Origin: an uncultured Erysipelotrichaceae bacterium
GTDB lineage: Bacteria > Bacillota_I > Bacilli_A > RFN20 > CAG-826
Length of the DNA stretch: 64,000 bases
Assembly: GCA_902800355.1 (NCBI GenBank)
Contig: CADCEE010000004.1
Span: forward strand, 16,175 to 80,174
Reading direction: 5' to 3'
Shown here piece by piece: positions 27,894 to 49,314 of this stretch (position 1 is the stretch's first letter; each line of letters opens with the position of its first letter). The translations under genes were made by a program, and so were the position numbers. The notes below the pieces were generated by a model. It was not told the origin of the DNA and searched no databases. It saw nothing but the letters and a program-made list of their open reading frames with translations.

Positions 27894-27946
27894 AACCAGT
27901 ATTTCTCTGGCTATGTACCTATATTATATATAAAGTTATACAAAAG

Positions 27947-28792
27947 TCAAAGAATTTTCGACACTGTATTTGCAGACAAAGAGTGTCTAGATGGATATGT
28001 CGCAAGTAGCGTTGAAAAATCTTTTATCAATCTCTTAAGTTCTTTTCTAAATTCATTGCCACAACTCAATTGTTTAATTAGAAAAAACAACACTGCTTCG
28101 AAATATGATAAGTAGACACCCGTCATTGGAGAATAAGCATTATTGATAATGTAACGACCACCATATTTAGATAATTGATCTGCAAATTTCTTAGTAATTA
28201 TATGATTGCCGTGCGCACATCGATTTCGTAAGACCCTAATAGATTCGAAATAATTGAGCAGTAAATCATATGTATGAACAGGTAAATGCGAAGTGTATTT
28301 ATCGATAAACGGTTGTTCATATGTTGTGTCTATATATCTATAAACAGTTTCAAAACAGCCAAAAGACATAGAATACATAGCAACATAATTCAATGGACCA
28401 ACGCTGGAAGGTGACATTTTATCAATACTGTTTTGAACATTGTTTTTGGTTAAACAAAAAATAGTTTTTTTACCAGGACGTCGTACTCTAGCTGTTGGAG
28501 TATAATATTTGCTAACTTTCCAAAATTGTTTTGATCTAGTTGCGTTTTCTACCATTTTGGCGAAGTCGCTCTTAATTTGAATTTCAAACCGCATTAAATA
28601 TTGAGTCAATAAAGCCCTCAGCCTTTCATCCAAGAAAAAGAATCCTAAAGCGTCGTTAACATTACCGTTTGAACATCTTAAAAAACCAAGAAAATAATAT
28701 TCACTGCATTTATTAGAAATATAGCTATTAATCTTTCTTAATTCAGCGGCGGTTACTGATGGATATTCTTTTCTAATTAAAGACTTTGCCAT
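27947..28792 (-). CDS. Abi_2 family (AbiD/AbiF-like) abortive-infection protein
   Basis: 281 aa. FLDERLRALLTQYLMRFEIQIKSDF and the conserved VLRNRCAHGNHI motif are typical of Abi_2. Confidence 0.75.
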   Translation of the reverse strand: MAKSLIRKEYPSVTAAELRKINSYISNKCSEYYFLGFLRCSNGNVNDALGFFFLDERLRALLTQYLMRFEIQIKSDFAKMVENATRSKQFWKVSKYYTPTARVRRPGKKTIFCLTKNNVQNSIDKMSPSSVGPLNYVAMYSMSFGCFETVYRYIDTTYEQPFIDKYTSHLPVHTYDLLLNYFESIRVLRNRCAHGNHIITKKFADQLSKYGGRYIINNAYSPMTGVYLSYFEAVLFFLIKQLSCGNEFRKELKRLIKDFSTLLATYPSRHSLSANTVSKIL

Positions 28793-28869
28793 ATTTATAT
28801 TGTAAATTTAAAGATTGTTTATTTCATTATTTTTATGAAATATTTTTATTTTATATGAGGAACAACTCA

Positions 28870-29862
28870 ATGATTAAGAAGGCACAATTATTAGAAGAAA
28901 ACAAGAAATTAAAAAGAAAACTATTTATTTGGGAAAACATAAATATAAGTATCAATTCATCAGTTAAAGAAAAAGAAATCGCTGCGGAAAAGTTTTTAAA
29001 CGAACACCCTGATTACAATCTTTATGAGGTAAGTGACACCATCAAAATCAATAGAGGAACATTATACCACCACCTTTATACAAGAGTAGAAAAACCTTGG
29101 TATGTTAAAAAGATTGAAACTTTATCAAAAGAAGTCATTGAAGTATTCGAAGAATCTAAAAGACTGTATGGTGCAGAAAAGATAGTCCTCGCTCTTAAAA
29201 GAAAAGGGATTACAACTGACAAGAAAATGGTTCTAAAGATAATGAGGGAAAATAAGTTAGAAAAAGCCACTATTGTTAAAAAGAAGAAACCAACTATTAA
29301 TTCTTGGAAATATAAAAAATTTAAGGATTTAGTAAATAGAGATTTTAAACAAGAAGCACCAAATAAAGTTTGGACCAGCGACTTTGTCGAAATAAAAGTT
29401 AGAGGGGTTAAATTCTATCTATGTATCATCTTGGATTTATATGCAAGAATGATCGTTGGGTGGCGATTATCTCATAATAAAAACGAGAATTTAGCCATCA
29501 ATACATTCAAGGATGCATTTGAAAAACGAAACGAACCTAGAAATTTGATTTTTCACTCGGATAGAGGAGCGGAATATACTTCCAATAATTTTAGAAAACT
29601 ATTAGAAATGCTGGGTGTCCAACAATCATTTTCTAAACCCGCTTCTCCAAATGATAATGCATGTACCGAAGGTTTTATTTCTAGGCTAAGAAGAGAAGAA
29701 ATCAATGTTAACATTGAAAGATATGAAAATTCTATGGTGATGCGAGAGTATTTAAGTCAATATTTTAATTTCTATAACAATAAAAGAATTCATACATTTA
29801 ATAATGGTCTAACCCCAAAAGAAAAAGAGGATGAATATTACCAAAATCACCCTCAAAAATAG
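28870..29862 (+). mobile_element. IS3-family transposase gene (single ORF; element ends not defined)
   Basis: HTH_21-like YGAEKIVLALKRKGITTDKKMVLKIMRENKL. DDE triad context WTSDF / HSDRGAEY / NACTEGF. Start taken at MIKKAQLLEENKKLKRK. I could not identify terminal inverted repeats by eye. Confidence 0.8.
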
Positions 29863-29926: not shown

Positions 29927-29938
29927 CTTGGTTGCGGA
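29927..29938. repeat. Direct repeat, copy 2 (within and adjoining the tRNA-fMet 3' acceptor strand)
   Basis: CTTGGTTGCGGA is identical to 26813-26824. Confidence 0.7.
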
Positions 29939-30006
29939 GGTGAGATTTGAACTACACGACCTCCGGGTTATGGGCCCGACGAGCTACCAGGCTGCTCTAC
30001 TCCGCG
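29929..30006 (-). tRNA. Initiator tRNA-fMet (anticodon CAT)
   Basis: The reverse complement is CGCGGAGTAGAGCAGCCTGGTAGCTCGTCGGGCCCATAACCCGGAGGTCGTGTAGTTCAAATCTCACCTCCGCAACCA. It has the C1:A72 mismatch and three GC pairs closing the anticodon stem, and is close to E. coli tRNA-fMet. Encoded CCA. Confidence 0.85.
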
Positions 30007-33845: not shown

Positions 33846-36719
33846 TTAACTAATTTGGCTTAATGTTCCAGTATAAGAGTTTTCTAAGACAAACACCGCT
33901 AAATTACCTTGTCCAGAAACAGATACACTTAAAGAACCATTATTAACTGGCTTTCTTTCTCCGGTTACTAAATTAACATAAGTACCATTAGGTAAGCCGG
34001 TAAATGTTGTGCTATTAGAAATAGCAACAGCGGCTAAAGAATCAATGTTTCCGCTTGTATATCTTCTAACAAAGGCCATATTATCAAAAGTGCTATATTG
34101 GCCCATAGATAAAGCAGGAACTTTTAATCTAATCTTATTAAGCATCATAAGATGCTTGGATAAAGTAGAATTTAAAGTATCTTCTACATTTCCACTAGCA
34201 GTATAACTACCAAATCCAGTCGCATTAACTGTACCTTCTAAATATTCTCCATAATAGGCTCTACCAGAATTAGATAGATTTTGATATTGATCTATTTTCT
34301 TGCCCTTCATAAATTCAATTTCCGAACCATAATAAACACAAGGCACTCCTCTAAAAGTAAACATTAAAGACATATTTTCTTTCCAAGCATCTGTACCTTG
34401 GTTATATCTTACTTCTTCTGGGTTGCCATCAGGAGCATAGTCATGTGAATCGACATAAACGATGTTATAAGTTGCATCGTTATAAACACTATCGTTTTGT
34501 CTTGCTACTTGATAAGCATCGTTAGCGTATTTAAAGTTCCAGTGCATGGCAAAATCAATAACCCCAAATCCGCTACTCTTAGAGTAGTCAGGAGTGTGAT
34601 AGGTATAATTATTACCTAAATAAACATTGTTACTTGTTGGATGACCAGCAGGGTTAATATTATCGTTCCAATTTTCTTCGGTAGAAGCTTCGTTAGTTTT
34701 TCTATCACCCCAAGCGTATTCTTTAGATTCTTTCCAAGTATAGAAACATGCTGAATCAGATCCAACATTATGGTTCCACACTCCACGTTCTCTATTACAA
34801 ACTTCACCAAACATGAAGAAGTTAGTATTTCCACATTTTTTAGCGATTTCGTATAATCCAGGAATTAGATATTTATTCATCGTTAATCGGGAAATATGTT
34901 TTACAGTATCCACTCTAAAAGCGTCTACACCTAATCTAATGAAATCTCCATATTTATCTACCAGATAATTAGCAACAGTTGGATTCTCTGTATTTAAATC
35001 AATACAATCTCCTGCCATTGAGCCAGTTTGTTCAATATATTGCTCATAACCCATACTCATTTCATGATGATAAATGTTATAGGCATCAGAAGAAGTTTTC
35101 ATCGCTTGAATTCTCGCTTGGAATTGGCCTTCACCATTTAAAGAGGTGTAATTACTAGGTAATAAGTGAGAATAATATGTACTAGGAGATAATCCGTTTT
35201 GAGTGCCGTTAAGGCTATCATAAGTAAACATTGGGAAAAGATTTTCTTCTCCTAAATTAGATGTATGATTAAAGACCACATCTAATACGATTTTCATATC
35301 TCGCTTATGCGCTTCTTTAATCACATCTGCGAACTTCACATCTTCACTTTCGTATCTTGGGTCGACTTGTGAAAAATTAATCGCATGATAGCCGTGATAA
35401 TCATATCCAGAAGCATTTTTCACTACTGGAGTAATCCAAATAGCGGTAAAGCCTAAGGCTTTAATATAATCCATCTTTTGAATTAGGCCTTTAAAATCAC
35501 CTCTCCACTCTGGATCATTTGCGTTATTATTAGCCCAGCATTTTCTATTATTAGAAGCGTCCCCATCATAAAATCTAGTGGTCATCGCAAAATATATAGA
35601 TTCTTGTCTAAAATCAGTTCTAACTCCAGTATAAGGATTAATTACTAATCCTTTATTATAGTCTTTAACCGCTGGAAGTTCGGTATAATCTTTAGCGGAA
35701 CTCACTACTTCAAAATTACCTTGTGGTAAATCACTAGTTGGGTCATCTCCAGAAGGTTTCTTGTTATATAAGCGGTTATTATAACACCAATAGTATCCCA
35801 CTTGAGTAACTGCTAAATTGCCAGTTTGTTTTTGACTACTGCCAACATTAAAGATGAGATTAAATGATGTATAAGATGAATCAAAATCATAAGTGTTCCA
35901 CTCATCATCATAACTACTCATCTGGTCTCCAGGCCAACTCTTTGTAATAGTGTTAACATTTCCACTATTTTCGCTCCAAGCATAAACATATGAATATTCT
36001 TCTTTATAAGCAAATACTTTAACAAAGTTGATTTCTGGTAAATCTTCTTCTTTTCCTTCCCCAGGGTCTTCAGGGTCAGGATCTGGGTCAATAGGCTTTT
36101 TAGTAACAGTTAATTTGCATACTGATTCAAATCCGCCATCAACAGAGGTGATTGTAATATCGGTTTTTCCTTCATTCAAAGCTTTAACCACTCCGTTACT
36201 AACGGAAGCGATATTTTCATCTTTAATAGTCCATCTCACTGTCTGATTATCCGCATTACTTGGATAAACCTTATAAGTTAATCTTTCTTCTTGTTCTTCT
36301 TGCAAAGTTAAAGTGGGTTTATCAAAAGCGACACTTGTGACATGAACTACAGTTCCTTGTTCTTCTTCGTTAACCACTACTCTACAAGTTGCTTCAAAAC
36401 CGCCATCAGTGGTAGTTGCTTTAATTAAAGCTACTCCTTCGCTATAAGTGGTAACATTTCCGTTAGCATCAACCCTCGCAGTTGAAGTTTCATCGCTTTC
36501 AATAGTAAATGATTTATCACTAGCGTTTTCTGGGCTAACAGTAACTTTAAGAGAATATGATTCTCCAACAGTTAATTCCACTCTATTTACGTCAAAAGAA
36601 ATGCCGGTGACATGAATAACAGGTGGTTCTGGAGGATTGTCTTTAGGTGTACTAGTGTTACATGCAGCAACTAACGCCACTAAAGGAAGAATTAAGAAAT
36701 TTAAAAACTTAGTTCTCAT
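33846..36719 (-). CDS. Surface lipoprotein alpha-amylase (GH13) with two Big_2 Ig-like domains and a probable starch-binding module
   Basis: Lipobox LVAAC. Two repeats (VTGISFD.../VTSVAFD...) are typical of Big_2. GH13 regions DVVFNHTS, GVDAFRVDTVKHI, FMFGEV, YVDSHD. Confidence 0.88.
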   Translation of the reverse strand: MRTKFLNFLILPLVALVAACNTSTPKDNPPEPPVIHVTGISFDVNRVELTVGESYSLKVTVSPENASDKSFTIESDETSTARVDANGNVTTYSEGVALIKATTTDGGFEATCRVVVNEEEQGTVVHVTSVAFDKPTLTLQEEQEERLTYKVYPSNADNQTVRWTIKDENIASVSNGVVKALNEGKTDITITSVDGGFESVCKLTVTKKPIDPDPDPEDPGEGKEEDLPEINFVKVFAYKEEYSYVYAWSENSGNVNTITKSWPGDQMSSYDDEWNTYDFDSSYTSFNLIFNVGSSQKQTGNLAVTQVGYYWCYNNRLYNKKPSGDDPTSDLPQGNFEVVSSAKDYTELPAVKDYNKGLVINPYTGVRTDFRQESIYFAMTTRFYDGDASNNRKCWANNNANDPEWRGDFKGLIQKMDYIKALGFTAIWITPVVKNASGYDYHGYHAINFSQVDPRYESEDVKFADVIKEAHKRDMKIVLDVVFNHTSNLGEENLFPMFTYDSLNGTQNGLSPSTYYSHLLPSNYTSLNGEGQFQARIQAMKTSSDAYNIYHHEMSMGYEQYIEQTGSMAGDCIDLNTENPTVANYLVDKYGDFIRLGVDAFRVDTVKHISRLTMNKYLIPGLYEIAKKCGNTNFFMFGEVCNRERGVWNHNVGSDSACFYTWKESKEYAWGDRKTNEASTEENWNDNINPAGHPTSNNVYLGNNYTYHTPDYSKSSGFGVIDFAMHWNFKYANDAYQVARQNDSVYNDATYNIVYVDSHDYAPDGNPEEVRYNQGTDAWKENMSLMFTFRGVPCVYYGSEIEFMKGKKIDQYQNLSNSGRAYYGEYLEGTVNATGFGSYTASGNVEDTLNSTLSKHLMMLNKIRLKVPALSMGQYSTFDNMAFVRRYTSGNIDSLAAVAISNSTTFTGLPNGTYVNLVTGERKPVNNGSLSVSVSGQGNLAVFVLENSYTGTLSQIS

Positions 36720-37067: not shown

Positions 37068-37133
37068 ATGAGTGAAATCATATTTGTTCTCATTTTACTA
37101 TGTTACCTTGTGTACATAATAAAAAGGCCATAA
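37068..37133 (+). CDS. Candidate 21-aa hydrophobic peptide (type I toxin-like), hypothetical
   Basis: MSEIIFVLILLCYLVYIIKRP, preceded by GAGGGGAGG about 8 nt upstream. The 3' end overlaps, in antisense, the terminator of the convergent gene. Confidence 0.25.
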   Translation: MSEIIFVLILLCYLVYIIKRP

Positions 37134-37150
37134 CCCAAGAGGTTAAGGCC
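37116..37150 (-). terminator. Rho-independent terminator ending the NRPS/partner-switch operon
   Basis: On the minus strand: GGCCTTAACC-tcttg-GGTTATGGCC (one mismatch) followed by TTTTTATTAT. Confidence 0.8.
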
Positions 37151-37194: not shown

Positions 37195-39336
37195 TTATAG
37201 AACTAGTTCAATAATAGAATGACCGTCTTTATAAAAGTATTTATGAGACTTAGTTAAATCCTTAACAATAATTAAACCAAATCCACCAGGAGCAATTTCT
37301 GAATGGAATTTATCTAGAAATTTCTCTTTATGATTTTTAAATGGATCATAATCTTTCCCATTAGAGGTGATAGTGAGTTTTAAATCGCCATTAACGTATT
37401 CAAAGTGGATATCGATAACTAAATCTTCTCTTTTTTCATAAGAAACAAGATTATTCACTAATTCATCAATAATAATACCTACAGATGATCTAGTTTTCTC
37501 TTCTAAATAAGAGAATGAATCATTAAATTTATCAACAATTTCGTTGATGATGGAATAATCTTTTTTCTCATAGTGGAGATCAAATTCCGCTTTTTTATTT
37601 CTAATAAGAATCATGGTGATGTCATCAAATTGTTCTTTCTTACCAATGAAGTCGTTGAGATTCTTATTAACTTTATTAATCACTTCTTCAAGTGGTAATT
37701 CACTTGTTGAGGCAATAGTCTTTTCAATTCTTTCATAGCCGAATTCTTCTTCACTTGCGTTAATGGATTCATTTAATCCATCAGTAAACATGAATAAGTA
37801 GTCTCCCTTATTAAACTTATGAGATTCTGCTTTAAATTCATATCCTTCTTCAACACCTAATACGATGTTGGATTCTCCGTCTAACTTCGTAACTTTATTA
37901 TCAGAAACAATATAAGGTTTTTCATGTCCTGCATTAACATATTTAATCTCATTCTTCTTAAAGTCAATGACACCGATAAATGAAGTGATGAATAATAATT
38001 CTTTATTATTCTTCGCTAGCATATTGTTCACACTATTAATGGCATCAACAAGATTATCATATGATTCAACAGCGGATTTAATTAATTCCTTGCCCTTCAT
38101 CATGAATAAGCTAGCAGGTATACCTTTACCAGAAACATCACAAATAGAAACAACTAATCGATGGTCATCTAAATAGAAATAATCATAGAAGTCACCACTA
38201 ACTTCTTTAGCAGGTTTAATATACGCTCTTAAAGAGCAATTATAATCATCACATTTGTTATTTGGTAAAGAATCAAGTTGAATCTTACTAGCAATCTCTA
38301 ATTCTGCGTTGATTTTTTCTTTTTCTTTCGCATCTTTCTTAATGATGTCAACATAGTTGACAATCTGGTCTTGCATTAAGATAAAGGAGTCTTCTAATGT
38401 CTTAATTTCATCACGAGATTTAATGTTTGGATTGATCGTTTTAAGTGGTTTATTAGCTTTTAGTTGATTAGAAACATCCACTGCGGCTTTATTTAGCTTA
38501 TTGATGTTTCTAACAAACATAAAATAAGATAAAACTGCATATAAAATAATGACCGCTAATCCACTACCTAAAAGGATCAATATCTCATTTCTTAATATTG
38601 GAGCGTAGTCACTTGAAACTCTACTAGTCTCATAAGCGGCAAATAAATATCCAATGGTCTCTACATCACCGCTATCATCGCTTTTAATCTCGATAAATCT
38701 AGTTTCATAAGACCCTAATCTATAACCTTTAATATAGCTATGTCCAATATCAAATATTTGATCAGTGGGTTTTAAATCATAATGACTACCAACGCAGAAA
38801 TAGAAAACATTCTTTTCCATGGATGTACCCATTCTTGAGTCGGTAATAAAAATAAAACGATTTGGATTAGTTGGGTCTTTCATCGCATAGAAAGTATATT
38901 GAGAAGCATAAAATGAGGCATTAAATAAAGTATCAGTTATATCGTTATAGACTCTTTTAAATTCAAAATAATCTTTGCTACCTGGAAGTCCTTTTGGATA
39001 AAAGTACGGATAAGCATTTTCAAATTCTTTCTCATAATCTTTAAAAGAGGAATAATTTGAAAGTTCAACATTTTTAACGTAATCATATCCTTCTATAACC
39101 TTGTCTCTCACAACTTCAAAAGAGTCAGTTTTACGGGTAGTAGAATCTAAAGCATAATAAGTATTAGCGTATTCTAAAGCAGCAATACCGTCGGCGTTTA
39201 AATCTTCTTTTGCTTTAGAGATCATGTTGTTATAACTAACAACAACAGCGACTGTACCCGCGATAAAAGAAGCGATTATTCCAAGCAAAATCACTTTTAA
39301 AAGAATTGGAAAATGTAAACGCTTCTTATCTTTCAT
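37195..39336 (-). CDS. Membrane sensor - PP2C (SpoIIE/RsbU-type) phosphatase - RsbW-like HATPase fusion protein
   Basis: Two TM helices flank a ~220-aa extracytoplasmic domain. PP2C motifs are ELEIASKIQ, SGDFYDY, CDVSGKG, FTDGL, DDITMI. The C-terminal ~130 aa carry kinase-like N box IDELVNNLVSY and G box GGFGLIIVKDL. Confidence 0.85.
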   Translation of the reverse strand: MKDKKRLHFPILLKVILLGIIASFIAGTVAVVVSYNNMISKAKEDLNADGIAALEYANTYYALDSTTRKTDSFEVVRDKVIEGYDYVKNVELSNYSSFKDYEKEFENAYPYFYPKGLPGSKDYFEFKRVYNDITDTLFNASFYASQYTFYAMKDPTNPNRFIFITDSRMGTSMEKNVFYFCVGSHYDLKPTDQIFDIGHSYIKGYRLGSYETRFIEIKSDDSGDVETIGYLFAAYETSRVSSDYAPILRNEILILLGSGLAVIILYAVLSYFMFVRNINKLNKAAVDVSNQLKANKPLKTINPNIKSRDEIKTLEDSFILMQDQIVNYVDIIKKDAKEKEKINAELEIASKIQLDSLPNNKCDDYNCSLRAYIKPAKEVSGDFYDYFYLDDHRLVVSICDVSGKGIPASLFMMKGKELIKSAVESYDNLVDAINSVNNMLAKNNKELLFITSFIGVIDFKKNEIKYVNAGHEKPYIVSDNKVTKLDGESNIVLGVEEGYEFKAESHKFNKGDYLFMFTDGLNESINASEEEFGYERIEKTIASTSELPLEEVINKVNKNLNDFIGKKEQFDDITMILIRNKKAEFDLHYEKKDYSIINEIVDKFNDSFSYLEEKTRSSVGIIIDELVNNLVSYEKREDLVIDIHFEYVNGDLKLTITSNGKDYDPFKNHKEKFLDKFHSEIAPGGFGLIIVKDLTKSHKYFYKDGHSIIELVL

Positions 39337-39347
39337 TAAAGCTCCTA

Positions 39348-39644
39348 TTATTTAACAGTTAAGATGTTATTAAATCCAGTGACTTTAAAGACTTCTTGAC
39401 AGACCGGATTTAAATTATGGATTTCTAAAGCTTTATTAGAGGCCGCTAAAGATTTCTTTAACGCTAGTAAAGCACGTAATCCAGCAGAAGAAATATATTC
39501 GAGGTCTTTAGCTTCGATGATCACTTTTGCTTCTTTAATTTCTTCCTTAGAAAGAGCGTCAGTGAATTCAACGGAAGTCACTGTATCAAGTCTTCCTTTT
39601 AGAGCTACAACAAGCTCTTCTCCGCGTTTCATACTAATTTCCAT
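39348..39644 (-). CDS. STAS-domain anti-sigma-factor antagonist (SpoIIAA/RsbV-like)
   Basis: 98 aa. DLEYISSAGLRALLAL contains the conserved phosphorylatable Ser context. AAGGAGA SD. Confidence 0.88.
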   Translation of the reverse strand: MEISMKRGEELVVALKGRLDTVTSVEFTDALSKEEIKEAKVIIEAKDLEYISSAGLRALLALKKSLAASNKALEIHNLNPVCQEVFKVTGFNNILTVK

Positions 39645-39648
39645 ATAT

Positions 39649-41406
39649 TTATTCTCCTTTGAGTTTTATTTCAAACACTGTGTTATTTAAGTTAAGTATA
39701 CGCATATAAGTCATCTTATCGGTAATATTTTTGATAAGTTTTAATCCACTTGTAGAATATTCTTCTTTCTCATCAAACTCCACTTTAGTCGGATCAAATG
39801 GCACTCCATCATCCCTTATTCTTAATAATAAGGTATCTTTGAAAAGTTTTAAATTAATATCAATATAATCGTGACTCTTTTTCTTATAGCCATGGTTTAT
39901 GATGTTATCCACCATCTCTTCAGCGGCAAGTCCCACTATTTGGCTTTCTCTATTTGGAATATTATGACTTTTGGCAAATTCAGTAATTTGTTCTGAAACA
40001 ATAGATGCGTTTTGTTCATTGTTATCTAACGAGACATCAAATGATTCAACATCAAGTTTCTCAAGCATGAAAATACCACTACATTTTTTTCGTTTGTTAT
40101 AGAAGTGGATGAAGATATAAACAATTATTACTGTCGCTACTTCATTAATCCAACATGCCATGCAATACCCCATAAGTCCGTTTGTGTGCAGCAACACAAG
40201 CGTTAAAGGTAAGACAATTATTAATTCTCTTAAAAATACAGTAACCATAGATGGAACTGTCTTATCGATGGTTGGATAGTAGTTAGTTGAGAATTTGTTA
40301 ATTTCATATGGGATAAAGGAAATAAGATAAACCCATAAGACAGAATTAATAGTAGCAATATCTCCAGAATAATCCGCTCCAAAGATCGCACAATACGCTC
40401 CTGGGAAAATCAAAACAAATAAAGAAATAAGGACAGTAATTCCAATGTTAATCCAGTAAATTTTTCTTGTTACTGATTTAAGTGAATAATAGTCTTTTTC
40501 TCCATAAAAGATGCCACACAAGTTAGGAATAATATTAAGCACTCCTCCACAAAGTAGGTCAAACAAGAACACCATATTTGAGATTAATCCATAGAGCACT
40601 AATTCATCCCCAGTAAATAATTTTCCGATAAAAATATTGACGATTAGCATTTGAATTGCTGTCAAAAACATATTAATTGCAGAAGCAGAGGTAGCCTTGA
40701 AAATACTCTTAGCCCCACTATTTCTAATATTAAAAGTTAAGGTTAACATTTTCTTTTTACTAGTTAAGTAGAAAATAGTAACAATCGCCCCCACTAAATA
40801 TCCTGCTCCAGTAGATAAGGCAGCACCTAACATTCCATATCCTGAATCTTTCATAACAGTAATAAGTAAGACTTCAAGTCCAACTTTTGCGGCGTTAGAA
40901 ACAATATAGAAAACTGATGATAATTTAGGGCTATTATCTACCGCCATAAAAGATCCAATTAACAACGCATAAGTAATAATTGGATCAGTTAATAAGAAAC
41001 CTAAAATATATTGTCTACAAAGTTCAGTATCTCCTCCAAATAAAGAGGCTAATGGTTCGGCAACAGGGAAAGCAATAAGAGCAAATAATATCGAAATTGA
41101 CATACCAACAATAATAGAGAAAGAGTATGCTTTTTTAGCGCCTATTACATCTCTTTTGCCTAGTAAGGTCGCAACGACTATCGCCCCTCCAATTCCTAAA
41201 GCGAATCCTGGAATTTGTACAATATATAAAATCGGCATCACTAAAGATGACGCACTAAGAGCGGTTGGTCCAAGATAGTTGCCAATTAAAATACCGTCGA
41301 CAAGTGAGCCGAACTGCATCGCAAAAATCATTAAGATTGAAGGAATTAAATAAGTAATGAATTTACGATTAATAAGTTTAGAATTTCTTTTTAATGTTGT
41401 CGTCAT
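39649..41406 (-). CDS. MATE-family efflux transporter fused to a C-terminal RsbW/SpoIIAB-like HATPase domain
   Basis: About 12 TM helices (aa 1-440) with a MATE-like pattern. The C-terminal ~140 aa (nt 39649-40074) carry N box EEMVDNIINHG, G1 RDDGVPFDP and GLKLIKNITDKMTY. The start ATG overlaps the NRPS TGA stop (ATGA). Confidence 0.8.
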   Translation of the reverse strand: MTTTLKRNSKLINRKFITYLIPSILMIFAMQFGSLVDGILIGNYLGPTALSASSLVMPILYIVQIPGFALGIGGAIVVATLLGKRDVIGAKKAYSFSIIVGMSISILFALIAFPVAEPLASLFGGDTELCRQYILGFLLTDPIITYALLIGSFMAVDNSPKLSSVFYIVSNAAKVGLEVLLITVMKDSGYGMLGAALSTGAGYLVGAIVTIFYLTSKKKMLTLTFNIRNSGAKSIFKATSASAINMFLTAIQMLIVNIFIGKLFTGDELVLYGLISNMVFLFDLLCGGVLNIIPNLCGIFYGEKDYYSLKSVTRKIYWINIGITVLISLFVLIFPGAYCAIFGADYSGDIATINSVLWVYLISFIPYEINKFSTNYYPTIDKTVPSMVTVFLRELIIVLPLTLVLLHTNGLMGYCMACWINEVATVIIVYIFIHFYNKRKKCSGIFMLEKLDVESFDVSLDNNEQNASIVSEQITEFAKSHNIPNRESQIVGLAAEEMVDNIINHGYKKKSHDYIDINLKLFKDTLLLRIRDDGVPFDPTKVEFDEKEEYSTSGLKLIKNITDKMTYMRILNLNNTVFEIKLKGE

Positions 41407-44400
41407 AAGTCGGTCCTCTCAAAGAAGCCAAGAGTGTCGAGCGACTCAATCGCATTCTTTAAATATTGATAATCAGTAATCGGCCACTTATATCCTAAGT
41501 GATAAAGGCTCTTATTAGTGAACTCATTATCAGAAAGAATAAAGCTGTGGGTATGCATATCACTACTAGAATAAGAGATTAAGGATGAGACTAACATGCT
41601 CTTAGAATCATCTAGCATCATTTCTTTCATCGATTTTAAGAATTCATCGTCGCTCACTATTTCAATTCCAAATCCAAGTTCATTTAAGACATAGATTATG
41701 TCACCCATCTGCACCATATGTGAGTTAGCAGAGTGATAAACAGTGAATTTAGATGGAGTTTTACTAAGTAAAAGAATAGTCTTAGCAACTTCATCAATTG
41801 GAGAGAAGTCAACTTCAACATCCATAGAATTCACTGGGAATTTCTTAAGCGTAGCGTAGCCTTTTAAGTCTCTCATAAAGCCGTTAGTAATAGAGTTAGC
41901 CTGGAATTCTCCGTCACTTTGTCTACTCATAAGATTACCAACACGGATGATCTTGCCGTCTAATCCATCTTTATCTACGGCTTCAAGTAATGCTTTTTCA
42001 GCATCAAACTTGGAGTGGACATATTTGTTAGATACGTCTTGACCAAAGTCTAACATATCTTCTTTCATCCTAAAGGATGAGTCGAATTTATTATCAATAT
42101 TTTCGCCCGCAACTGAAAGTGTAGAGATTTGAACCAATCTCACTTTCTTCTTTTTAGCGATTTCAATTAAGTTTTTCACTCCTCCAACATTAACGTGTTC
42201 AATAATGTCGTCATTAGCGAAGTGTTTCACTATTGCGGCAGAGTTAATAATTAAGTTGAAATCATAATCTTTAAGTTTTTCACCTAATGTCTCATCAGTG
42301 ACATCCCCATCAACAATAGTGACATATTTATCAACTTCCTCAGTTAAAGGAGAATCAAAATAGTAAGCAAGTAAGCCTAATAAACGATCTTTAGGATTGA
42401 GCTTACCGCCTCTAATTAAAGCGATAGTAGCAACCTTTTGATCTAATAACTCTTTTAAGATGTGGATACCTAAGAATCCTGTAGAACCGGTTAATAAAAC
42501 TTTACTAACTTTATATTCATCTTTTGTGTCATTAACTTCGTCTACAATATTATGGGCCAAACTACCTAGTTCAGCTTTTTGTTCTTTAGCTTCTACTTTA
42601 GTAGGCTCACTAGTGTCTACCCCTGAAAGAGAATTGATATGTTTTTCAAGTTCTAAAACAGTGGAGTAATCAAAGACGTCGCCATAGGCAATTGGTAAAC
42701 CCATATTTAAGGCAAGCATTGCCACTTTAGAAACGCTTAATGATGTACCTCCCATTTCAAAGAAGTCATCATCCACTCCGACATTATCTTTACCTAAAGC
42801 TTTCTTAAATAATGTTAAGAGTTTTTCTTCTAAATCATTAGAAGCAGATTTCACTTCTTTCTTTTCTTCCTTAACTTCAATCTCTGGAAGTGATTTCTTA
42901 TCAATTTTGCCGTTAGGGGTAAGTGGGAATTTATCTAACTGCATCACCACTTTTGGAACCATATATGGAGTTAAGTATTTACCCATATGTTCAAGTAATT
43001 GATCTTTATCAACTTGGCTTGAAGCAGTAAAGTATGCCGCTAAATAATCTCCTTCTGGGCTTTGTTTAACTAAAATAATGCTTCTAGTAACTGAGTTATA
43101 GGAGTTAAGGACTCTTTCAATTTCATCAAGTTCCACTCTTAAGCCTCTTAATTTCACTTGGTTATCAAGTCGACCAAAGAATTCAACGTTACCTTCGCTG
43201 TTGATTCTAGCCATATCACCACTTCGATAAGCTTTTAAGCCGTTAATTTCAATAAAGGCTTCTTTAGTTTTTTCTGGTAAACCCAAATAACCTAAACCAA
43301 CTGATTCGCCGGCAATAGTTAAATCACCAATAGCGTTGATTGGTAAGATATGTCCGTGTTTATCTAAAGTAAATACTTTAGAGTTAGCGACCGGTTTACC
43401 AATAGTCATATATTTATCTTTGACTAAAGCGTATGTTGCGGTAATTGTAGTTTCGGTTGGACCATATCCATTTAAGATATTCGCGTTAACGCCTAAACTT
43501 CTAAGTCGATTACATAGTTCCATAGGTACAGCTTCTGCACCCATATCTAGATATTTAAATCCCTTTAAAGCGTCCACGAAGACATCAATATCTAATAAAT
43601 TAGATACAAAGGATGGAGTCATGAACATATATTTCACATGGTTCTCTTTTAAAGTTTTAGCGAGTAACATTGGATTTTCAATTTCTTCTTCACTGGCAAT
43701 TACTGCGGTATAGCCGTGAGTAAGAGGCACAAATTCTTCTTGCAAAGAAGCGTCAAAAGATAAAGAAGCAAATGAACAGCTCACGCAGTCCTCTCCAATG
43801 TCGCGATAGCAAATTGTCGCTAAGTTAGAGTCATCTAAAACATAGTTAAGTAAATTCTTGTGAGCGATCATCACTCCTTTTGGTTTACCTGTAGAACCAG
43901 AAGTATAAATGACATAGGCCATGGAAGATTGAGGAATCTTAACATCAGGATTATTAATCTCTTTAGACTGTAAAAGATCTTCAATCGCTAAAGTCTTCAC
44001 TTTAGTGGATTTAATTAATTCTTGTTTTTGCTTAATAATTTCACGAGTGGAAATTAATAATTTAGAGCCAGAATCAGTAATAATATAGCTCACTCTTTCA
44101 TCTGGATATTTTGGATCTACAGGAACAAAAGCTCCACCAGATTTCGCAATACCTTGTCTTACAACATATGCTTCTTTAATTCGCGGCATAAACATCACTA
44201 CACAATCCGCAAGTTTCACGCCTTCTTTAATTAAAGCGTGCGCAACTTTATTGGCGGATTCGTTAAGTTCTTGATAAGTTAATTTGCCGTTTTTGGCCAC
44301 TACTGCCACTTTACTTGGTCTATCTATAGCTTGTTTTTCAACTAACTTATTAACAGTAATGTCTTTAGGCATTTCTACTTCAGTTTGATTGAACTTCTCA

Positions 44401-47400
44401 TATTGAGCTTTATCAAACTCAGGGAGGCAATTAATATCTTTGATATTCTTTTTAGTTAATAACTCATTTAAGACTAATTCATATAAGCGTTTAAAGGAGT
44501 CAATTGTGTCTTTAGTGTACACGGCTTGATCCCATTCAAAATGAGCGCGATATTTCTCGTTTTCTAAGAAAATATCTAAACCAAAATCACTCTTAGGAGT
44601 TTCACTTTCCATTAAAATTGGAGTGACTTTAAACCCCCCTAAAGTTTCAAAATTAAAGTTATCTCCTTGATAAGCGAAAATAACATCCGCTTTTAAATTA
44701 TAGTCATTAGCGACATCGCCAAAGGAATATAAATCGTTTTCTTCTAAGCCAGAAAGTAATTCTTGCATTTGTTTAACTTTTGATAAAACTAAATCTTCTT
44801 CCGTATATTTGATATAAACCGGTAAGGTTTTAACAAACATGGAAACACTATTCATCACTTTCGAAGATTTTCTACCGTTATAAATGGTTTCATATAAGGA
44901 ATCATCTTTATAGATGAATTTTGATAATGTAAAAGCAAAAGCGAAGTTAAATAAGGCGTTATTAGTTAGCTTGTTAGACTCAACGTATTTCTTTACTAAC
45001 TCGTTGTCTAAATCTAATTCATAGTCGATAGATTGGAGTTTAGAGATTTCTTCAACCTTTAAATCCTTTTTAAGAGTGTATTCCCCGTCTACATCCTTAA
45101 GAACTTCGTTATAGTAGGCTTTAGCCTTATCTAATTTAGGAGAGGCTAAATCTTCTTTTTCTTGAAGCGCCACTTCATAGCCTGTATAGGTTTCTGGAGT
45201 TAATTTTTCTCCTGAATAAGCTTTATCAATATCACTTAAAATAATAGCTTCAGAAGTGCCGTCACATAAAATGTGATGGAAATCTAAGAAGAGATAGTTT
45301 TCTTTTCCTTCATAAATCTCTACGCGGTATAATTCACCATCTAAAATCGAGAACGGTCTCACTAAAGATTTAATATCAATTTCTTTTTTAAGAATTTCCA
45401 CTTTAGCAGGGTTACTATTTCTTCTAGCGACAATATCCCCACTATCATTCATATGTAAGATAGATTTTAAATATGGATGGTTATCAATAGTTTGACTAAC
45501 CGCTTCTTTTAATTTGGCTAAATCCATCTTTTTATCTAACTTAAATAAGTAAGGGATATTGTAATTAGTGCTATTAGGTTTAGAAACGCATTCAACAAAT
45601 ATTCCTTCTTGAGTTTTAGTAAGAGGATATTCATCTAAAACTTCAAAAGTCTTATCGTCTTCTTTATTTGCTAAAAATTCCGCTAAAGAAGCAATTGTGG
45701 AATGTGCTTTTAAATCACCATTTTCAACAGACTTGTTATATTTCTTTGATAAAAGAATAGTAAACCTAATAGATGATACTGAAGTTAATCCTACTTCAAA
45801 GATGTCATTAGTGACACCAAATTGGTCATGACCTAATACACCTTTTAAGATATCAAAGATATCTTGTTCAGCAGCGTTTCTCGGAGCAACCATTTCTTCA
45901 ACTTTAAGTTCAGGAACTGGTAAAGCTCTCTTATTAACCTTTTGATTTTGGTTAAGAGGAATCTTATCAATCTGCATTGTATAAGCAGGAACCATATAAG
46001 GTGGTTTTTGCTCTAAGATGAAATTATTAAGTTCTTCAACATTAATCTTTTTATCGCTAACTACATAAGCCACGATATATTTCACCCCACTAGGGTCGGT
46101 AAAATCTTTTACAGTGGCGTCTTTAATATCTTTAAAGTCTCTAATCACTTTTTCAACTTCAGAAAGTTCCACTCTAAAGCCACGGATCTTTACTTGTCCG
46201 TCTTTTCTTCCGATAAAGTCAATTGTCCCATCTTCTAATAGACGCACAATGTCACCGGTTTTATATAACTTTTCAAATTTTTCTTCTTTGGTAAACCAGT
46301 TAGATAAGAACGCTTCGCTATTTTCTTTTTCTCTATTTAAATAGCCTCTAGCAACTTGAGGTCCAGAGATATATAGTTCTCCACTAGTTAAAATTGGTAA
46401 TCTCTTTTTATTCTTGTCTAAGATATAAATCTTATAATCACTCAAGCATTTTCCAATCGGGATACGGTGATAGAATTTGTCCACTAATTGGAGGGTGCAG
46501 AAGACTGTACCTTCGGTAGGTCCATATAAGTTATAGAATTTATAGCCTTTAGGAGGATCCATAGGTACTAACTTTTCTCCTCCAACAGCGAAATATTTTA
46601 ATGATTTCACTTCAATCTCACTAGCGAATTGTCTACCAACTTGAGTAGTCATAAAAGCGTGAGTGATTTGATTTTTATTATAATATTCACCTAATTCCAC
46701 TAAATTGAGTCTCATCTCATCAGGAATGATATAGACAGTGGCCCCACTAGTTAATGATGGGTATAAATCCATCATATCTGCGTCAAAGCCATAACTAGCA
46801 TAGGCTGCACTTCTATTACCGACGCCTAGATTAAATTCTTGGCGGTAATATCTCACAAAACTAAAGATGTTGCCATGCTCTAACATCACACCTTTAGGAA
46901 CTCCTGTGGAGCCAGAAGTATAAAGCATGATAAATAAATCTTTAGGGGATGGTCGAGTTTTAATTTCTGTATTATCTTTTAAAGATAAAAGTTCATCAGT
47001 AAATAACTCTTTACCTTTAAAGTCATCCACTAAATCATTAAGTTCTCTATCTCTAATTAAGATAATGGCACTAGAGTCTTTAACCATGAAAGTTAATCTA
47101 TCTTTTGGATAAGTTGGGTCTAATGGCTGATAAGCTGCTCCAGACTTGATAACACCTAAAGAAGCTAAAACGATATATTCAGATTTCTTCACTAAAATAG
47201 AAACAACTTTCTCTTTTTTAGCTCCTAATCTAATTAATTCATTAGCGATTCTAGTAGAGATCTCATCAACTTCCTTATAAGTGTACTTTTTATCTTTAAA
47301 AACTACCGCCACTTCGTTAGGATGTTTTTTCACTACATCTAAGAAGTCATCTAAGATGGTTTTACCATCTTCAATATATGGGAAATTGGTATTATTAAAG

Positions 47401-48635
47401 GAATCAAGTAATTTAGTTTCTTCTTCGTCTAATAAATCAATATCAATAAGTCTTTCTTTCTTTAAGAATTCTGACATCACCACTTCATACATTTTAATGA
47501 TGTGTTTAATTGTGGACTCATTATATAAATCAGCACGATATTCCACCCAGATAATATATTTACCTTCTAAACGATGAAGTTCGACACTGAGTTTTTCTTT
47601 GCCATCTTTTCTTAATAATGGAGTAACTTCAAGTAATTTACCTTGATATTCACCAGAATAGAAATAATCACCTTGATAAGAGAATAAGACATCCGCACTT
47701 ACTCCAAAGTCTTTATTCATATCCGCAAAAGGATAGATGTTATGCTTAACATTATCAATTTGTTGTGCATTTGTTTTTAACAAATAATCTTTAACTTTAT
47801 CTTCGTCAGTATAGCTTAAATAAAGTGGATAAGTTTTAACATATGAACCTACACTCCTAGCGACGCTTTCATCTCTTCCGTTATGTACCGCTAAGAATAA
47901 AGCCTCGTTTTCCATATTAATCTTACTTAATAAGTAAGAGAACGCACCTAAGAAGAAGGAAGATGTTTTAATACCTAGTTTCTTAGTCAAAACTTTAACG
48001 TCTTTATCAGTAACATCTAAAGGAACACGGATATTGCCCCAAGAAACTTCTTTATCTTGTTTATCTTCTACTGGGGTAGAGTCAGTTTCAACTCCTCCAA
48101 CTAACTTTTCATAGTAATCTTTTGCTTCAATATATTTTTTAGACTTCAAGTCTTTTTCTTCTTTACTCGCAAATTCATTCGCATCAGATTTTTCAACTTC
48201 TAATTTCTTGCCCTCAAGAGCTTTTAAGAAATCACTTATAAAGATATGAATTGAAGTTCCGTCCATAATAATGTGATGGAAATCAAAATAGAAAACATAT
48301 TCATCTTTTACTCTGTAAAGTTTGAATCTATATAGGTGTTTATTAGTTAATTCATATGGTTTTGAATCAATCTTCACTTCCTTAACTTCTTCATAAGGGA
48401 GTTTGATTTCTTCTTCTTCGATGTGTTTAGTGATATTTCCTTCTTCATCAATGGATAAAACAGTAAATAAATAAGGATGAGCCTCAAAAACTGCTTTTAA
48501 GGCGTTAGCGACTTGTTCTTTAGTAACACCTCTACCTAAGTTAATCGTATTAGCGAGGTTATATGCATCTCCTGAATTTAAAGAAGAGATATATAATCCT
48601 TGTTCACTTTTAGATAATGGATAATGTTTATTCAT
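41403..48635 (-). CDS. Bimodular nonribosomal peptide synthetase, C-A-T-C-A-T-R (terminal thioester reductase)
   Basis: C1 FHHIIMDGTS (~nt 48262-48282). A1 LYTSGSTGVPKG (~46888-46925), YKTGD, GRKDGQVKIRGFRVEL. T1 FEVGLTSVS (~45790). C2 FHHILCDGTS (~45260-45285). A2 IYTSGSTGKPKG (~43876-43912), YRSGD, GRLDNQVKLRGLRVEL. T2 FEMGGTSLS (~42740-42760). R domain LLTGSTGFLG (~42470-42500) and YVHSKFDAEK (~41995-42028). Confidence 0.93.
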   Translation of the reverse strand: MNKHYPLSKSEQGLYISSLNSGDAYNLANTINLGRGVTKEQVANALKAVFEAHPYLFTVLSIDEEGNITKHIEEEEIKLPYEEVKEVKIDSKPYELTNKHLYRFKLYRVKDEYVFYFDFHHIIMDGTSIHIFISDFLKALEGKKLEVEKSDANEFASKEEKDLKSKKYIEAKDYYEKLVGGVETDSTPVEDKQDKEVSWGNIRVPLDVTDKDVKVLTKKLGIKTSSFFLGAFSYLLSKINMENEALFLAVHNGRDESVARSVGSYVKTYPLYLSYTDEDKVKDYLLKTNAQQIDNVKHNIYPFADMNKDFGVSADVLFSYQGDYFYSGEYQGKLLEVTPLLRKDGKEKLSVELHRLEGKYIIWVEYRADLYNESTIKHIIKMYEVVMSEFLKKERLIDIDLLDEEETKLLDSFNNTNFPYIEDGKTILDDFLDVVKKHPNEVAVVFKDKKYTYKEVDEISTRIANELIRLGAKKEKVVSILVKKSEYIVLASLGVIKSGAAYQPLDPTYPKDRLTFMVKDSSAIILIRDRELNDLVDDFKGKELFTDELLSLKDNTEIKTRPSPKDLFIMLYTSGSTGVPKGVMLEHGNIFSFVRYYRQEFNLGVGNRSAAYASYGFDADMMDLYPSLTSGATVYIIPDEMRLNLVELGEYYNKNQITHAFMTTQVGRQFASEIEVKSLKYFAVGGEKLVPMDPPKGYKFYNLYGPTEGTVFCTLQLVDKFYHRIPIGKCLSDYKIYILDKNKKRLPILTSGELYISGPQVARGYLNREKENSEAFLSNWFTKEEKFEKLYKTGDIVRLLEDGTIDFIGRKDGQVKIRGFRVELSEVEKVIRDFKDIKDATVKDFTDPSGVKYIVAYVVSDKKINVEELNNFILEQKPPYMVPAYTMQIDKIPLNQNQKVNKRALPVPELKVEEMVAPRNAAEQDIFDILKGVLGHDQFGVTNDIFEVGLTSVSSIRFTILLSKKYNKSVENGDLKAHSTIASLAEFLANKEDDKTFEVLDEYPLTKTQEGIFVECVSKPNSTNYNIPYLFKLDKKMDLAKLKEAVSQTIDNHPYLKSILHMNDSGDIVARRNSNPAKVEILKKEIDIKSLVRPFSILDGELYRVEIYEGKENYLFLDFHHILCDGTSEAIILSDIDKAYSGEKLTPETYTGYEVALQEKEDLASPKLDKAKAYYNEVLKDVDGEYTLKKDLKVEEISKLQSIDYELDLDNELVKKYVESNKLTNNALFNFAFAFTLSKFIYKDDSLYETIYNGRKSSKVMNSVSMFVKTLPVYIKYTEEDLVLSKVKQMQELLSGLEENDLYSFGDVANDYNLKADVIFAYQGDNFNFETLGGFKVTPILMESETPKSDFGLDIFLENEKYRAHFEWDQAVYTKDTIDSFKRLYELVLNELLTKKNIKDINCLPEFDKAQYEKFNQTEVEMPKDITVNKLVEKQAIDRPSKVAVVAKNGKLTYQELNESANKVAHALIKEGVKLADCVVMFMPRIKEAYVVRQGIAKSGGAFVPVDPKYPDERVSYIITDSGSKLLISTREIIKQKQELIKSTKVKTLAIEDLLQSKEINNPDVKIPQSSMAYVIYTSGSTGKPKGVMIAHKNLLNYVLDDSNLATICYRDIGEDCVSCSFASLSFDASLQEEFVPLTHGYTAVIASEEEIENPMLLAKTLKENHVKYMFMTPSFVSNLLDIDVFVDALKGFKYLDMGAEAVPMELCNRLRSLGVNANILNGYGPTETTITATYALVKDKYMTIGKPVANSKVFTLDKHGHILPINAIGDLTIAGESVGLGYLGLPEKTKEAFIEINGLKAYRSGDMARINSEGNVEFFGRLDNQVKLRGLRVELDEIERVLNSYNSVTRSIILVKQSPEGDYLAAYFTASSQVDKDQLLEHMGKYLTPYMVPKVVMQLDKFPLTPNGKIDKKSLPEIEVKEEKKEVKSASNDLEEKLLTLFKKALGKDNVGVDDDFFEMGGTSLSVSKVAMLALNMGLPIAYGDVFDYSTVLELEKHINSLSGVDTSEPTKVEAKEQKAELGSLAHNIVDEVNDTKDEYKVSKVLLTGSTGFLGIHILKELLDQKVATIALIRGGKLNPKDRLLGLLAYYFDSPLTEEVDKYVTIVDGDVTDETLGEKLKDYDFNLIINSAAIVKHFANDDIIEHVNVGGVKNLIEIAKKKKVRLVQISTLSVAGENIDNKFDSSFRMKEDMLDFGQDVSNKYVHSKFDAEKALLEAVDKDGLDGKIIRVGNLMSRQSDGEFQANSITNGFMRDLKGYATLKKFPVNSMDVEVDFSPIDEVAKTILLLSKTPSKFTVYHSANSHMVQMGDIIYVLNELGFGIEIVSDDEFLKSMKEMMLDDSKSMLVSSLISYSSSDMHTHSFILSDNEFTNKSLYHLGYKWPITDYQYLKNAIESLDTLGFFERTDL

Positions 48636-49225
48636 AACCTTTCCTCCTTGATGTTGATTTCAAATGGTGATTCATTTTCTCTAGTGACACAAATCACTGA
48701 GTCTAAATATTTAATTGTTTTTGATCGATATTTATTATTTTTATAGCTCTTCACGTTATTTATTGGAATTGAAGGAATGTCTTTAATCTTTTCTTTTATT
48801 CCTGTTCCAATACATTTAGTGAGCGACTCTTTATTAGTCCAGACTTCATAGAAAGATTTTTCATCTTTAATATATTCTTTTTCTTCTTTAGAAGAGATAT
48901 ATTCTATTAAGTCATCTTCTACTGGTCTTATCTTTTCTATATCCACTCCTATGGGGACATCATCTTTTATAAAGACTACACATCCTTTGGAGTGAGAAAT
49001 ATTAAAGAAGCAATCTTTACTAATCGGCTTACCATAAGAGTTAAGTGAATATTCCCCTATATATTTGTTTTTTAAAATAAGTGAGACTGCTTTTTCTTTT
49101 TTGGTTTCCTCTAGTTTATATCTAGATAACTCCATAATATTTTCTTCACTTAAAAACGAGGATGATAAAAGATCTTCAAGCGATAATATATTAGAATCTA
49201 CGAACAATAGATTAAGAATAATCAC
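48632..49225 (-). CDS. 4'-phosphopantetheinyl transferase (Sfp-type)
   Basis: GVDIEKI and WTNKESLTKC motifs. The TGA stop overlaps the NRPS ATG (ATGA). Confidence 0.85.
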   Translation of the reverse strand: MIILNLLFVDSNILSLEDLLSSSFLSEENIMELSRYKLEETKKEKAVSLILKNKYIGEYSLNSYGKPISKDCFFNISHSKGCVVFIKDDVPIGVDIEKIRPVEDDLIEYISSKEEKEYIKDEKSFYEVWTNKESLTKCIGTGIKEKIKDIPSIPINNVKSYKNNKYRSKTIKYLDSVICVTRENESPFEINIKEERL

Positions 49226-49314
49226 GTATTTATTATAACTATAATATAAATAAAAAAAACCAAAATTGAGATATAATCTACAATATTTGGTTTTTATCTA
49301 GCTAATTTACTTAA

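Follow-up and report, generated by a model that had tools for sequence, protein, structure and literature searches.

A stretch of 64,000 nucleotides from an uncultured Erysipelotrichaceae bacterium (GenBank assembly GCA_902800355.1, contig CADCEE010000004.1, positions 16,175 to 80,174 of the forward strand), referred to here as the window, carries on its minus strand an operon of five genes. A 4'-phosphopantetheinyl transferase (PPTase) and a nonribosomal peptide synthetase (NRPS) are followed by an efflux transporter of the MATE family that is fused at its C-terminus to a SpoIIAB/RsbW-like GHKL domain, by a STAS protein and by a membrane-anchored PP2C phosphatase that carries a second GHKL domain. 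These are the parts of a partner switch. They recur next to NRPS genes in gut and rumen bacteria, and no sigma factor is conserved with them.

The operon and its products

The features of the operon are listed below in the direction of transcription, with H1 and H2 denoting the GHKL domains of the transporter and of the phosphatase, respectively.

49252-49295, minus strand: hairpin followed by a U-run (-13.1 kcal/mol, z -4.4, 0 of 200 shuffles as stable)
48632-49225, minus strand: PPTase (Pfam ACPS, 8e-12)
41403-48635, minus strand: dimodular NRPS of 2410 aa, C-A-T-C-A-T-R by the order of its Pfam domains
40087-41406, minus strand: MATE (MOP superfamily) transporter domain, residues 1-440 of the fusion (Pfam MatE, two repeats, 4e-25)
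39652-40053, minus strand: H1, cytoplasmic SpoIIAB/RsbW-like GHKL domain, residues ~452-585 of the fusion (Pfam HATPase_c_2, 6e-15, residues 466-569)
39348-39644, minus strand: single-domain STAS protein of 98 aa (Pfam STAS, 1.6e-13; NCBIfam TIGR00377, anti-sigma factor antagonist, above cutoff)
38512-39336, minus strand: N-terminal sensor part of a 713-aa protein, from the hydrophobic segments of its translation
37600-38169, minus strand: PP2C (SpoIIE/RsbU-type) phosphatase domain, residues 390-579 (Pfam SpoIIE, 7e-43, full profile)
37198-37512, minus strand: H2, second GHKL (HATPase_c_2) domain at the C-terminus of the PP2C protein, residues ~609-713 (Pfam, 29.5 bits against a cutoff of 27.4, 8.6e-7)
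37116-37150, minus strand: intrinsic terminator, 3' boundary of the operon (hairpin of -18.5 kcal/mol, then a U-run)

A sequence-only reading that preceded this analysis had described five same-strand genes joined by ATGA overlaps or gaps of 12 nt or less, a strong terminator at 37116-37150, and all the parts of a partner switch (a STAS antagonist, a SpoIIE/RsbU-type phosphatase and two RsbW/SpoIIAB-like domains) with no sigma factor in or beside the operon. The coordinates of the open reading frames (ORFs), the junctions, the stability of the terminator and the Pfam and NCBIfam matches all bear this description out. The five minus-strand ORFs are those of the PPTase (48632-49225), the NRPS (41403-48635), the MATE-GHKL fusion (39649-41406), the STAS protein (39348-39644) and the sensor-PP2C-GHKL protein (37195-39336). 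Both the PPTase/NRPS and the NRPS/fusion junctions are ATGA overlaps, the STAS gene follows the fusion gene after 4 nt and the PP2C gene follows the STAS gene after 11 nt, with a Shine-Dalgarno-like GGAG before each of the junction starts. The hairpin at 49252-49295 probably serves the upstream lipoprotein gene as an intrinsic terminator and marks the 5' end of the operon; a TATAAT-like hexamer lies after it at ~49232-49237. With terminator hairpins on both sides, the five genes thus form a bracketed unit. No riboswitch was found at the operon, the Rfam matches in the window being tRNAs only. Profile searches with Pfam and NCBIfam models found no sigma factor encoded between ~25.6 and 63.7 kb of the window, and hence no nearby cognate sigma factor of the kind that the sequence-only reading had named as fatal to its proposal.

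The NRPS contains two condensation, two AMP-binding and two PP-binding domains and ends in a NAD_binding_4 reductase. Its first condensation domain is of the starter type and the terminal domain is a thioester reductase. By analogy with the literature on the same architecture, the predicted product class is an N-acyl dipeptide aldehyde. In related loci the gene directly upstream of the fusion gene encodes an orthologue of this NRPS, with 56-98% identity. The PPTase may start at an internal Met31 instead of the GTG codon, judging from its sequence.

The fusion protein is 585 aa long. Its transporter part has about 12 transmembrane (TM) helices, and the acidic residue in TM1, Asp37, is invariant in the family alignment; in both respects it corresponds to the MATE fold, and cation-coupled export of a small molecule is its predicted function. 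An AlphaFold2 model of the fusion was built on 45 family members (pLDDT 77) and compared with known structures by Foldseek. The first ~440 residues match 6FHZ, 4LZ6 (DinF), 3VVN (PfMATE), 4Z3N (ClbM) and NorM with target TM-scores of 0.6-0.8, and the first non-MATE matches of the model are the SpoIIAB structures 1L0O, 1TIL and 1TH8 (0.71-0.79). In a PDB sequence search H1 matches SpoIIAB and RsbW only, with N-box and G1 box aligned, and it also matches the NCBIfam spIIAB and RsbW models with scores below their cutoffs. Profile, sequence and fold searches therefore agree with the earlier proposal that an RsbW-like domain is covalently attached to the efflux pump. The other C-terminal domain, H2, also matches HATPase_c_2, less strongly than H1 but still significantly.

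The STAS protein matches SpoIIAA, TM1442 and RsbV, and weakly the NCBIfam mlaB model. The stretch YISSAGLRAL, in which the sequence-only reading had recognized a phospho-serine context, is indeed present, and it is the second Ser (Ser53, codon 39486-39488, motif LEYISSAGLR) that aligns with Ser58 of SpoIIAA and is the predicted phospho-acceptor. This Ser motif is invariant in 32 orthologues and in the distant and enzyme-fused STAS domains described below. The phosphatase protein begins with a putative sensor, consisting of TM1 (~residues 11-35), an extracytoplasmic region of ~215 aa, TM2 (~residues 251-275) and a coiled-coil linker that extends to ~residue 385. The extracytoplasmic region has no Pfam match, the N-terminal region evolves fast (a homologue search gave 4 proteins), and its predicted secondary structure of helices followed by a 6-7-strand sheet provides only a hint of a Cache/PDC-like fold. 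The metal-binding motifs of the PP2C domain (GDFYD, DVSGKG, TDGL and FDD) are conserved in 28 orthologues. SiaA (NF038263) is the best named NCBIfam match of the sensor phosphatase, with 64.4 bits against a cutoff of 700, which places it outside that family.

Which of the two GHKL domains might act as a kinase can be approached through their motifs. In an alignment of 154 family members, H1 retains the N-box (E496-E497-x3-N501) and the G1 box (D532-D533-G534), with the Glu and Asn residues of the N-box and the Asp of G1 almost invariant (148-153 of the 154 sequences). The second Gly of G1 is replaced by Pro, the G2 box is degenerate across the family, reduced to [GS]-G-[IL]-x-[LM] with one conserved Gly, and an invariant family-specific motif, Y567-x-R-x-L-N-x-N-N-T, lies near the C-terminus. 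H2 is encoded either as a separate gene or fused to PP2C, depending on the locus. All canonical kinase motifs are present in 17/17 standalone H2 sequences; the PP2C-fused version keeps N-box and G2 and has the G1 Asp in 20/49 sequences and Ser in 19/49. In the clade of the window the N-box Asn and the G2 box (GGFG) are conserved and the G1 Asp is replaced by Ser (TSNG). Since standalone H2 has the full set of kinase motifs and the G2 box of H1 is degenerate, the comparison speaks more for H2 as the kinase of STAS, with H1 as a receiver that binds nucleotide, without settling the matter, above all in the lineage of the window.

It could also be that the pump is the sensor. H1 would then be an RsbW-type kinase, or an 'anti-X', that reports substrate load or cycling of the MATE transporter by phosphorylating the STAS protein or by sequestering X (the NRPS or some other enzyme of the biosynthesis, or else a factor encoded at another site), H2 would serve as an RsbT-like activator of PP2C, and the output would be feedback on synthesis, not export. 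The near-invariance of the N-box and G1 residues of H1, as expected of a nucleotide-binding domain, speaks for such an arrangement, as does the missing G1 Asp in the H2 domain of the window clade. However, the G2 box and the ATP lid of H1 are degenerate throughout the family when standalone H2 is fully canonical, and with one STAS protein per cassette there is no substrate for a second layer resembling RsbT-RsbS. We consider it unlikely that the pump is the sensor, and the assignment of H1 as receiver and H2 as kinase is the one pursued below.

Conservation of the cassette and its linkage to NRPSs

Homologues that carry both Pfam domains number in the hundreds. The fusion recurs in hundreds of independent assemblies, which shows that it is real and not an assembly artefact, a concern that the sequence-only reading had itself raised. 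An exhaustive search with H1 alone returned 216 cluster representatives at E <1e-10, most of them 575-600 aa long with the domain at ~455-590; among 69 proteins from this search, with identities to the window protein down to 20%, MatE was found in all 69 and HATPase_c_2 in 65. Three genome scans yielded 143 non-redundant fusion-bearing species loci, almost all from rumen or gut samples. The hosts are Erysipelotrichaceae (Erysipelotrichales) and 'Bacilli' metagenome-assembled genomes, Acholeplasmatales, Christensenellales, Ruminococcus and other Oscillospirales, Lachnospiraceae (Lachnospirales), Monoglobus and Selenomonadaceae (Selenomonadales). Cultured carriers include Petralouisia muris, Eubacterium sp. 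14-2, E. plexicaudatum ASF492 and Lachnospiraceae bacterium 3-1. Wherever the contigs reach far enough, the 33 closest species show synteny in the order PPTase-NRPS-fusion-STAS-PP2C~H2; these five families are the only ones conserved, with no sixth, and the flanks differ.

The sequence-only reading had recommended a search for MATE-HATPase_c_2 fusions beside STAS, SpoIIE and NRPS genes. We carried it out as a census of the 78 loci in which the fusion gene has 7 kb or more of flanking sequence on each side, counting features within 10 kb. An NRPS is present in 74/78 loci, almost always immediately upstream of the fusion gene, a very strong co-occurrence and the reverse of the lack of linkage that the sequence-only reading would have taken as refuting its proposal; STAS occurs in 59/78, PP2C in 56/78, a second GHKL domain (H2) in 55/78 and the complete set in 52/78, and a PPTase gene in 22/78 of these full-flank loci. 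STAS and PP2C are jointly present or jointly absent in all but 3 loci. The genes occur in at least five orders, for example H2-PP2C-NRPS-FUS-STAS, STAS-NRPS-FUS-PP2C~H2 and NRPS-FUS-STAS-PP2C-H2, FUS being the fusion gene. Content that is retained while the order is shuffled is a classical signature of functional coupling. In some Clostridia/Christensenella loci (L033:11538-12140, also L169 and L170) the PPTase gene, instead of preceding the NRPS gene, lies downstream of the PP2C gene, and the switch genes are thus enclosed within the biosynthetic cluster. In one Erysipelotrichaceae genome (L012:14355-17685) a second pair of STAS and PP2C~HATPase genes directly follows the first, a duplicated switch.

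Not every fusion comes with a switch. In 17/78 clusters, mainly from Selenomonadaceae together with L015 and L016, NRPS and fusion stand without STAS, PP2C or H2 within 10 kb, and the motifs of H1 are equally conserved there, indicating that the fused domain does not strictly depend on a switch encoded in cis. The retention of H1 in these orphan fusions would also be compatible with a pump that acts as sensor. Moreover, it could mean that two modules merely travel together. In that case the STAS, PP2C and H2 genes would form a switch of their own on another target, such as transcription of the cluster through an unlinked factor, and H1 would be a separate regulatory or dimerization module of the pump, sensing for instance ATP or the energy state, with no direct coupling between H1 and STAS. 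The trio does possess its own candidate kinase in H2, and a mirror-tree analysis of 74 complete cassettes shows that the distances among STAS proteins are tracked mainly by those among PP2C proteins (partial r 0.54) and not specifically by those of H1.

The more distant relatives of the fusion argue against such independence. A DNA-pattern search with RIRDDGxxFDP, for which the matches listed were mostly unrelated GHKL proteins, contributed a few distant fusion loci. Fusions of 20-27% identity do not always have an NRPS neighbour and often have a STAS gene nearby. In Roseburia (L045), Oscillibacter sp. MSJ-31 (L147) and L136, fusion and STAS occur with no NRPS and with an ORF of ~452 aa that has no Pfam match; in L045 (3064-4422) and L147 (5022-6383) such an ORF follows the fusion gene with overlapping stop and start codons. 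An Asp/Glu racemase gene is found near the fusion and STAS genes in L045. The P0158 fusion has STAS nearby and neither NRPS nor PP2C, and in L286 fusion and STAS stand beside a carrier protein, a PPTase and a standalone condensation domain that is fused to a cyclic-nucleotide-binding domain (L286:1524-3665). L037 combines the fusion with a 3015-aa NRPS, a standalone GHKL protein and STAS. Directly downstream of the fusion in L288 (4956-9311), STAS is the N-terminal domain of an APH-family kinase (404 aa) and of an AMP-binding adenylating enzyme (624 aa), the two genes being separated by an Acyl_transf_3 gene. All these STAS domains, whether distant or fused to an enzyme, form a single subfamily that shares the LEYISSAGLR motif and its invariant Ser. 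As STAS is kept beside distant fusions often without an NRPS, the fusion-STAS pair looks, from these sequences, like the older core of the system, with NRPS-type chemistry as its dominant context. STAS thus accompanies the fusion in the absence of NRPS and PP2C (L045, L136, L147, L286, L288 and P0158), and a SpoIIAB-like fold has no known class of partner besides STAS proteins and sigma factors. These points, together with the single STAS subfamily, make it quite unlikely in our view that the trio and H1 work independently. The STAS-adenylating enzyme fusion would also suit an H1 domain that acts on biosynthetic enzymes, as a sensing pump might; no candidate for X, however, is conserved in cis.

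A classical switch should be considered as well, in which H1 tethers to the membrane a sigma factor encoded elsewhere and STAS releases it to transcribe the cluster. The nearest solved relatives of H1 are anti-sigma factors, and the window represents just 64 kb of the genome. Nevertheless, no sigma factor was found in the window between ~25.6 and 63.7 kb and none is conserved in the 143 loci, in which the conserved gene set includes neither a sigma factor nor a DNA-binding protein. Since the cassette occurs in six orders with unrelated flanks, a dedicated sigma factor would have had to move along with it. A comparable neighbourhood of NRPS, MatE, STAS and Ser-phosphatase genes has also been described in Methanobrevibacter ruminantium M1 (mru0066-mru0071; Leahy et al., 2010, PMC2812497). 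As an archaeon, M. ruminantium has no sigma factors, which fits an output of another kind. This locus is absent from the matches to a search with the Ruminococcus-type fusion and from the last genome scan. On balance, a tethered sigma factor strikes us as very improbable.

A possible mechanism and the surroundings of the cassette

In the scheme that we prefer, the region is an NRPS cassette of the gut N-acyl-dipeptide-aldehyde type, self-contained and horizontally mobile, with a dedicated MATE exporter that is the receiver of a sigma-independent partner switch; we see about an even chance that it is correct. The extracytoplasmic domain of the sensor would read an external cue and thereby set the phosphorylation state of the STAS protein, with PP2C removing the phosphate and H2, possibly also H1, adding it. 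Unphosphorylated STAS might then dock on H1, as SpoIIAA docks on SpoIIAB, and docking would alter either the activity of the pump, opening or closing it, or the way in which the pump is coupled to the assembly line. The peptide aldehyde would thereby be released under post-translational control. The working model of the sequence-only reading, phosphorylation-gated export or self-protection for the NRPS product, is thus partly supported: the switch parts, the fusion and the NRPS linkage are borne out, and the pump as output is inferred. The recurrence of the cassette in more than 100 gut species suggests that compound release is signal-controlled without the involvement of a sigma factor.

Several lines of evidence point towards this scheme. 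Translational coupling of the genes is tight, the STAS Ser and the PP2C motifs are conserved, and H1 is SpoIIAB-like in sequence and fold. Rosetta-stone evidence comes from the neighbourhood of a distant fusion, in which an AMP-binding enzyme and an APH kinase each carry a STAS domain with the same Ser motif. Other observations weigh against it. Binding of STAS to H1 is a prediction from homology with SpoIIAA-SpoIIAB. The H2 domain of the window clade has lost the G1 Asp, which makes its assignment as a kinase uncertain there, and the coupling of STAS to H1 and to H2 in the mirror-tree analysis is equal and weak (partial r ~0.10 each). Then there are the 17/78 clusters that combine NRPS and fusion with no switch genes nearby. 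The scan for sigma factors covers ~25.6-63.7 kb of a 64-kb window, and the rest of the genome could encode a sigma factor or another target. The census is biased towards fusions at least ~33% identical to two query types, and the archaeal MatE, mru0069, enters the comparison through a published description that mentions no fusion.

Perhaps H1 is more generally a phosphorylation-controlled docking site, both for free STAS domains like that of the window and for STAS domains carried by adenylating enzymes and kinases, of which L288 is the example. We offer this extension tentatively and would not be surprised to see it fail. If it were true, hundreds of natural-product clusters of the gut, the rumen and possibly archaea would use such docking, in a sigma-free partner switch, to couple the assembly line to its exporter or to gate the exporter. 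Secondary-metabolite release would then be subject to a layer of post-translational control that had gone unrecognized, which could help to explain why the products of the gut clusters have been so elusive in culture. The preferred scheme would hold for a family of gut-microbiome NRPS clusters, of which characterized relatives make protease-inhibiting peptide aldehydes. It would also provide handles to switch the clusters on, such as an S53A substitution in STAS or deletion of the kinase, and the cultured strains in the family make the hypothesis directly testable.

The surroundings of the cassette in the window deserve brief mention. A 153-aa ORF upstream of the PPTase gene was considered as a hidden extracytoplasmic function sigma factor and rejected, having a lipoprotein signal peptide with a lipobox and no Pfam match. 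Just upstream of the operon, a single ORF (49801-50727) encodes a DNA-binding domain of the Xre type (HTH_3) at the N-terminus and an alpha/beta-hydrolase-like region at the C-terminus; it is kept only in the closest relatives (L004) and thus lies outside the cassette. The cassette is flanked by genes for two large secreted enzymes that carry Big_2 domains, one an alpha-amylase with CBM26 and the other an Endonuclease I (33846-36719 and 51230-52852). Three tandem tRNA genes at 52942-53261, ~3.7 kb upstream of the NRPS operon, represent a possible integration hotspot for the cassette, the flanks of which vary among species. Further away, a TIR_2-domain protein and an Abi_2 (abortive infection) protein adjoin an rve-family integrase/insertion sequence element and a tRNA gene (26901-29862 and 29932-30006); together they are likely a small island, either mobile or for defence. 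At 62000-62550 the window encodes a type II toxin-antitoxin pair, RelB-YafQ.

Comparison with known systems

We regard the module as a partner switch with a putative transporter-fused receiver that resides inside NRPS clusters; it is built from parts of the RsbU/V/W type and departs from such systems in that no sigma factor belongs to its conserved set. With the RsbU-RsbV-RsbW and SpoIIE-SpoIIAA-SpoIIAB switches of Bacillus it shares the PP2C phosphatase, the phospho-Ser STAS antagonist and the GHKL module. However, its SpoIIAB-like domain forms the C-terminal end of a MATE transporter with 12 TM helices, and the phosphatase carries a further GHKL domain. H1 also differs from Bacillus SpoIIAB and RsbW in its degenerate G2 box and the YxRxLNxNNT motif.

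Non-sigma partner switches are established in SiaABCD, HsbR-HsbA-HsbD and BgrU/V/W-BgrR, which have diguanylate cyclase outputs, and in the recently reported HenR-All4160 system of Anabaena. In SiaABCD, HsbA-HsbD, BgrV-BgrR and the Anabaena system a STAS-like protein binds a non-transcriptional target directly and controls it according to its own phosphorylation state, and it is to these that we liken the module of the window. Its presumed target, by contrast, is a secondary transporter with a GHKL-like receiver fused on, and its input is a TM and extracytoplasmic domain, not a receiver domain. HsbR combines an N-terminal receiver (REC) domain, PP2C and a C-terminal HATPase_c_2 domain on one polypeptide. 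The phosphatase of the window resembles it in PP2C and C-terminal HATPase_c_2 and differs in a two-TM sensor N-terminus that takes the place of the REC domain.

STAS domains also modulate transporters, as in the C-terminal STAS domain of SulP/SLC26 proteins and in MlaB, which acts on the MlaFEDB ABC transporter. In the window, however, STAS is a free protein of 98 aa that is predicted to be phosphorylatable, the domain fused to the pump is GHKL instead of STAS, and the transporter belongs to the MATE family. ClbM of the colibactin island (4Z3N) is likewise encoded by a MATE gene inside an NRPS/PKS (polyketide synthase) cluster. To our knowledge, neither ClbM nor any other characterized MATE transporter carries a cytoplasmic GHKL domain or is accompanied by partner-switch genes.

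The NRPS itself shares its C-A-T-C-A-T-R order and terminal reductase with the gut dipeptide-aldehyde/pyrazinone family (Guo et al., 2017; ruminopeptin, Schneider and Balskus, 2018), of which the hosts are likewise gut Clostridia and Ruminococcus and the products have proved difficult to detect in cultures. If a signal gates export or synthesis, this could account for products of these gut clusters that are silent or undetectable.

The sequence-only reading knew of no earlier description of a switch with a MATE exporter beside an NRPS as its output. This holds in part. The neighbourhood was published in 2010 for M. ruminantium (PMC2812497), and Leahy et al. (2010) proposed roles in sensing, regulation and export for its genes. 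Gene order differs there, no MatE-GHKL fusion is mentioned (PMC2812497), and the account is a note on a single genome rather than on a family. In literature searches we found neither the MATE-GHKL fusion nor its family-wide linkage described, the cluster annotations of the gut dipeptide-aldehyde papers lying outside their reach. The names that annotation pipelines give to the fusion proteins go no further than 'ATP-binding protein' or 'MATE family efflux transporter'.

In textbooks, partner switches regulate sigma factors; those known to act on enzymes are few. If the scheme proposed here is true, the paradigm would extend to the control of membrane transport, with an anti-sigma-like module built into a secondary transporter.

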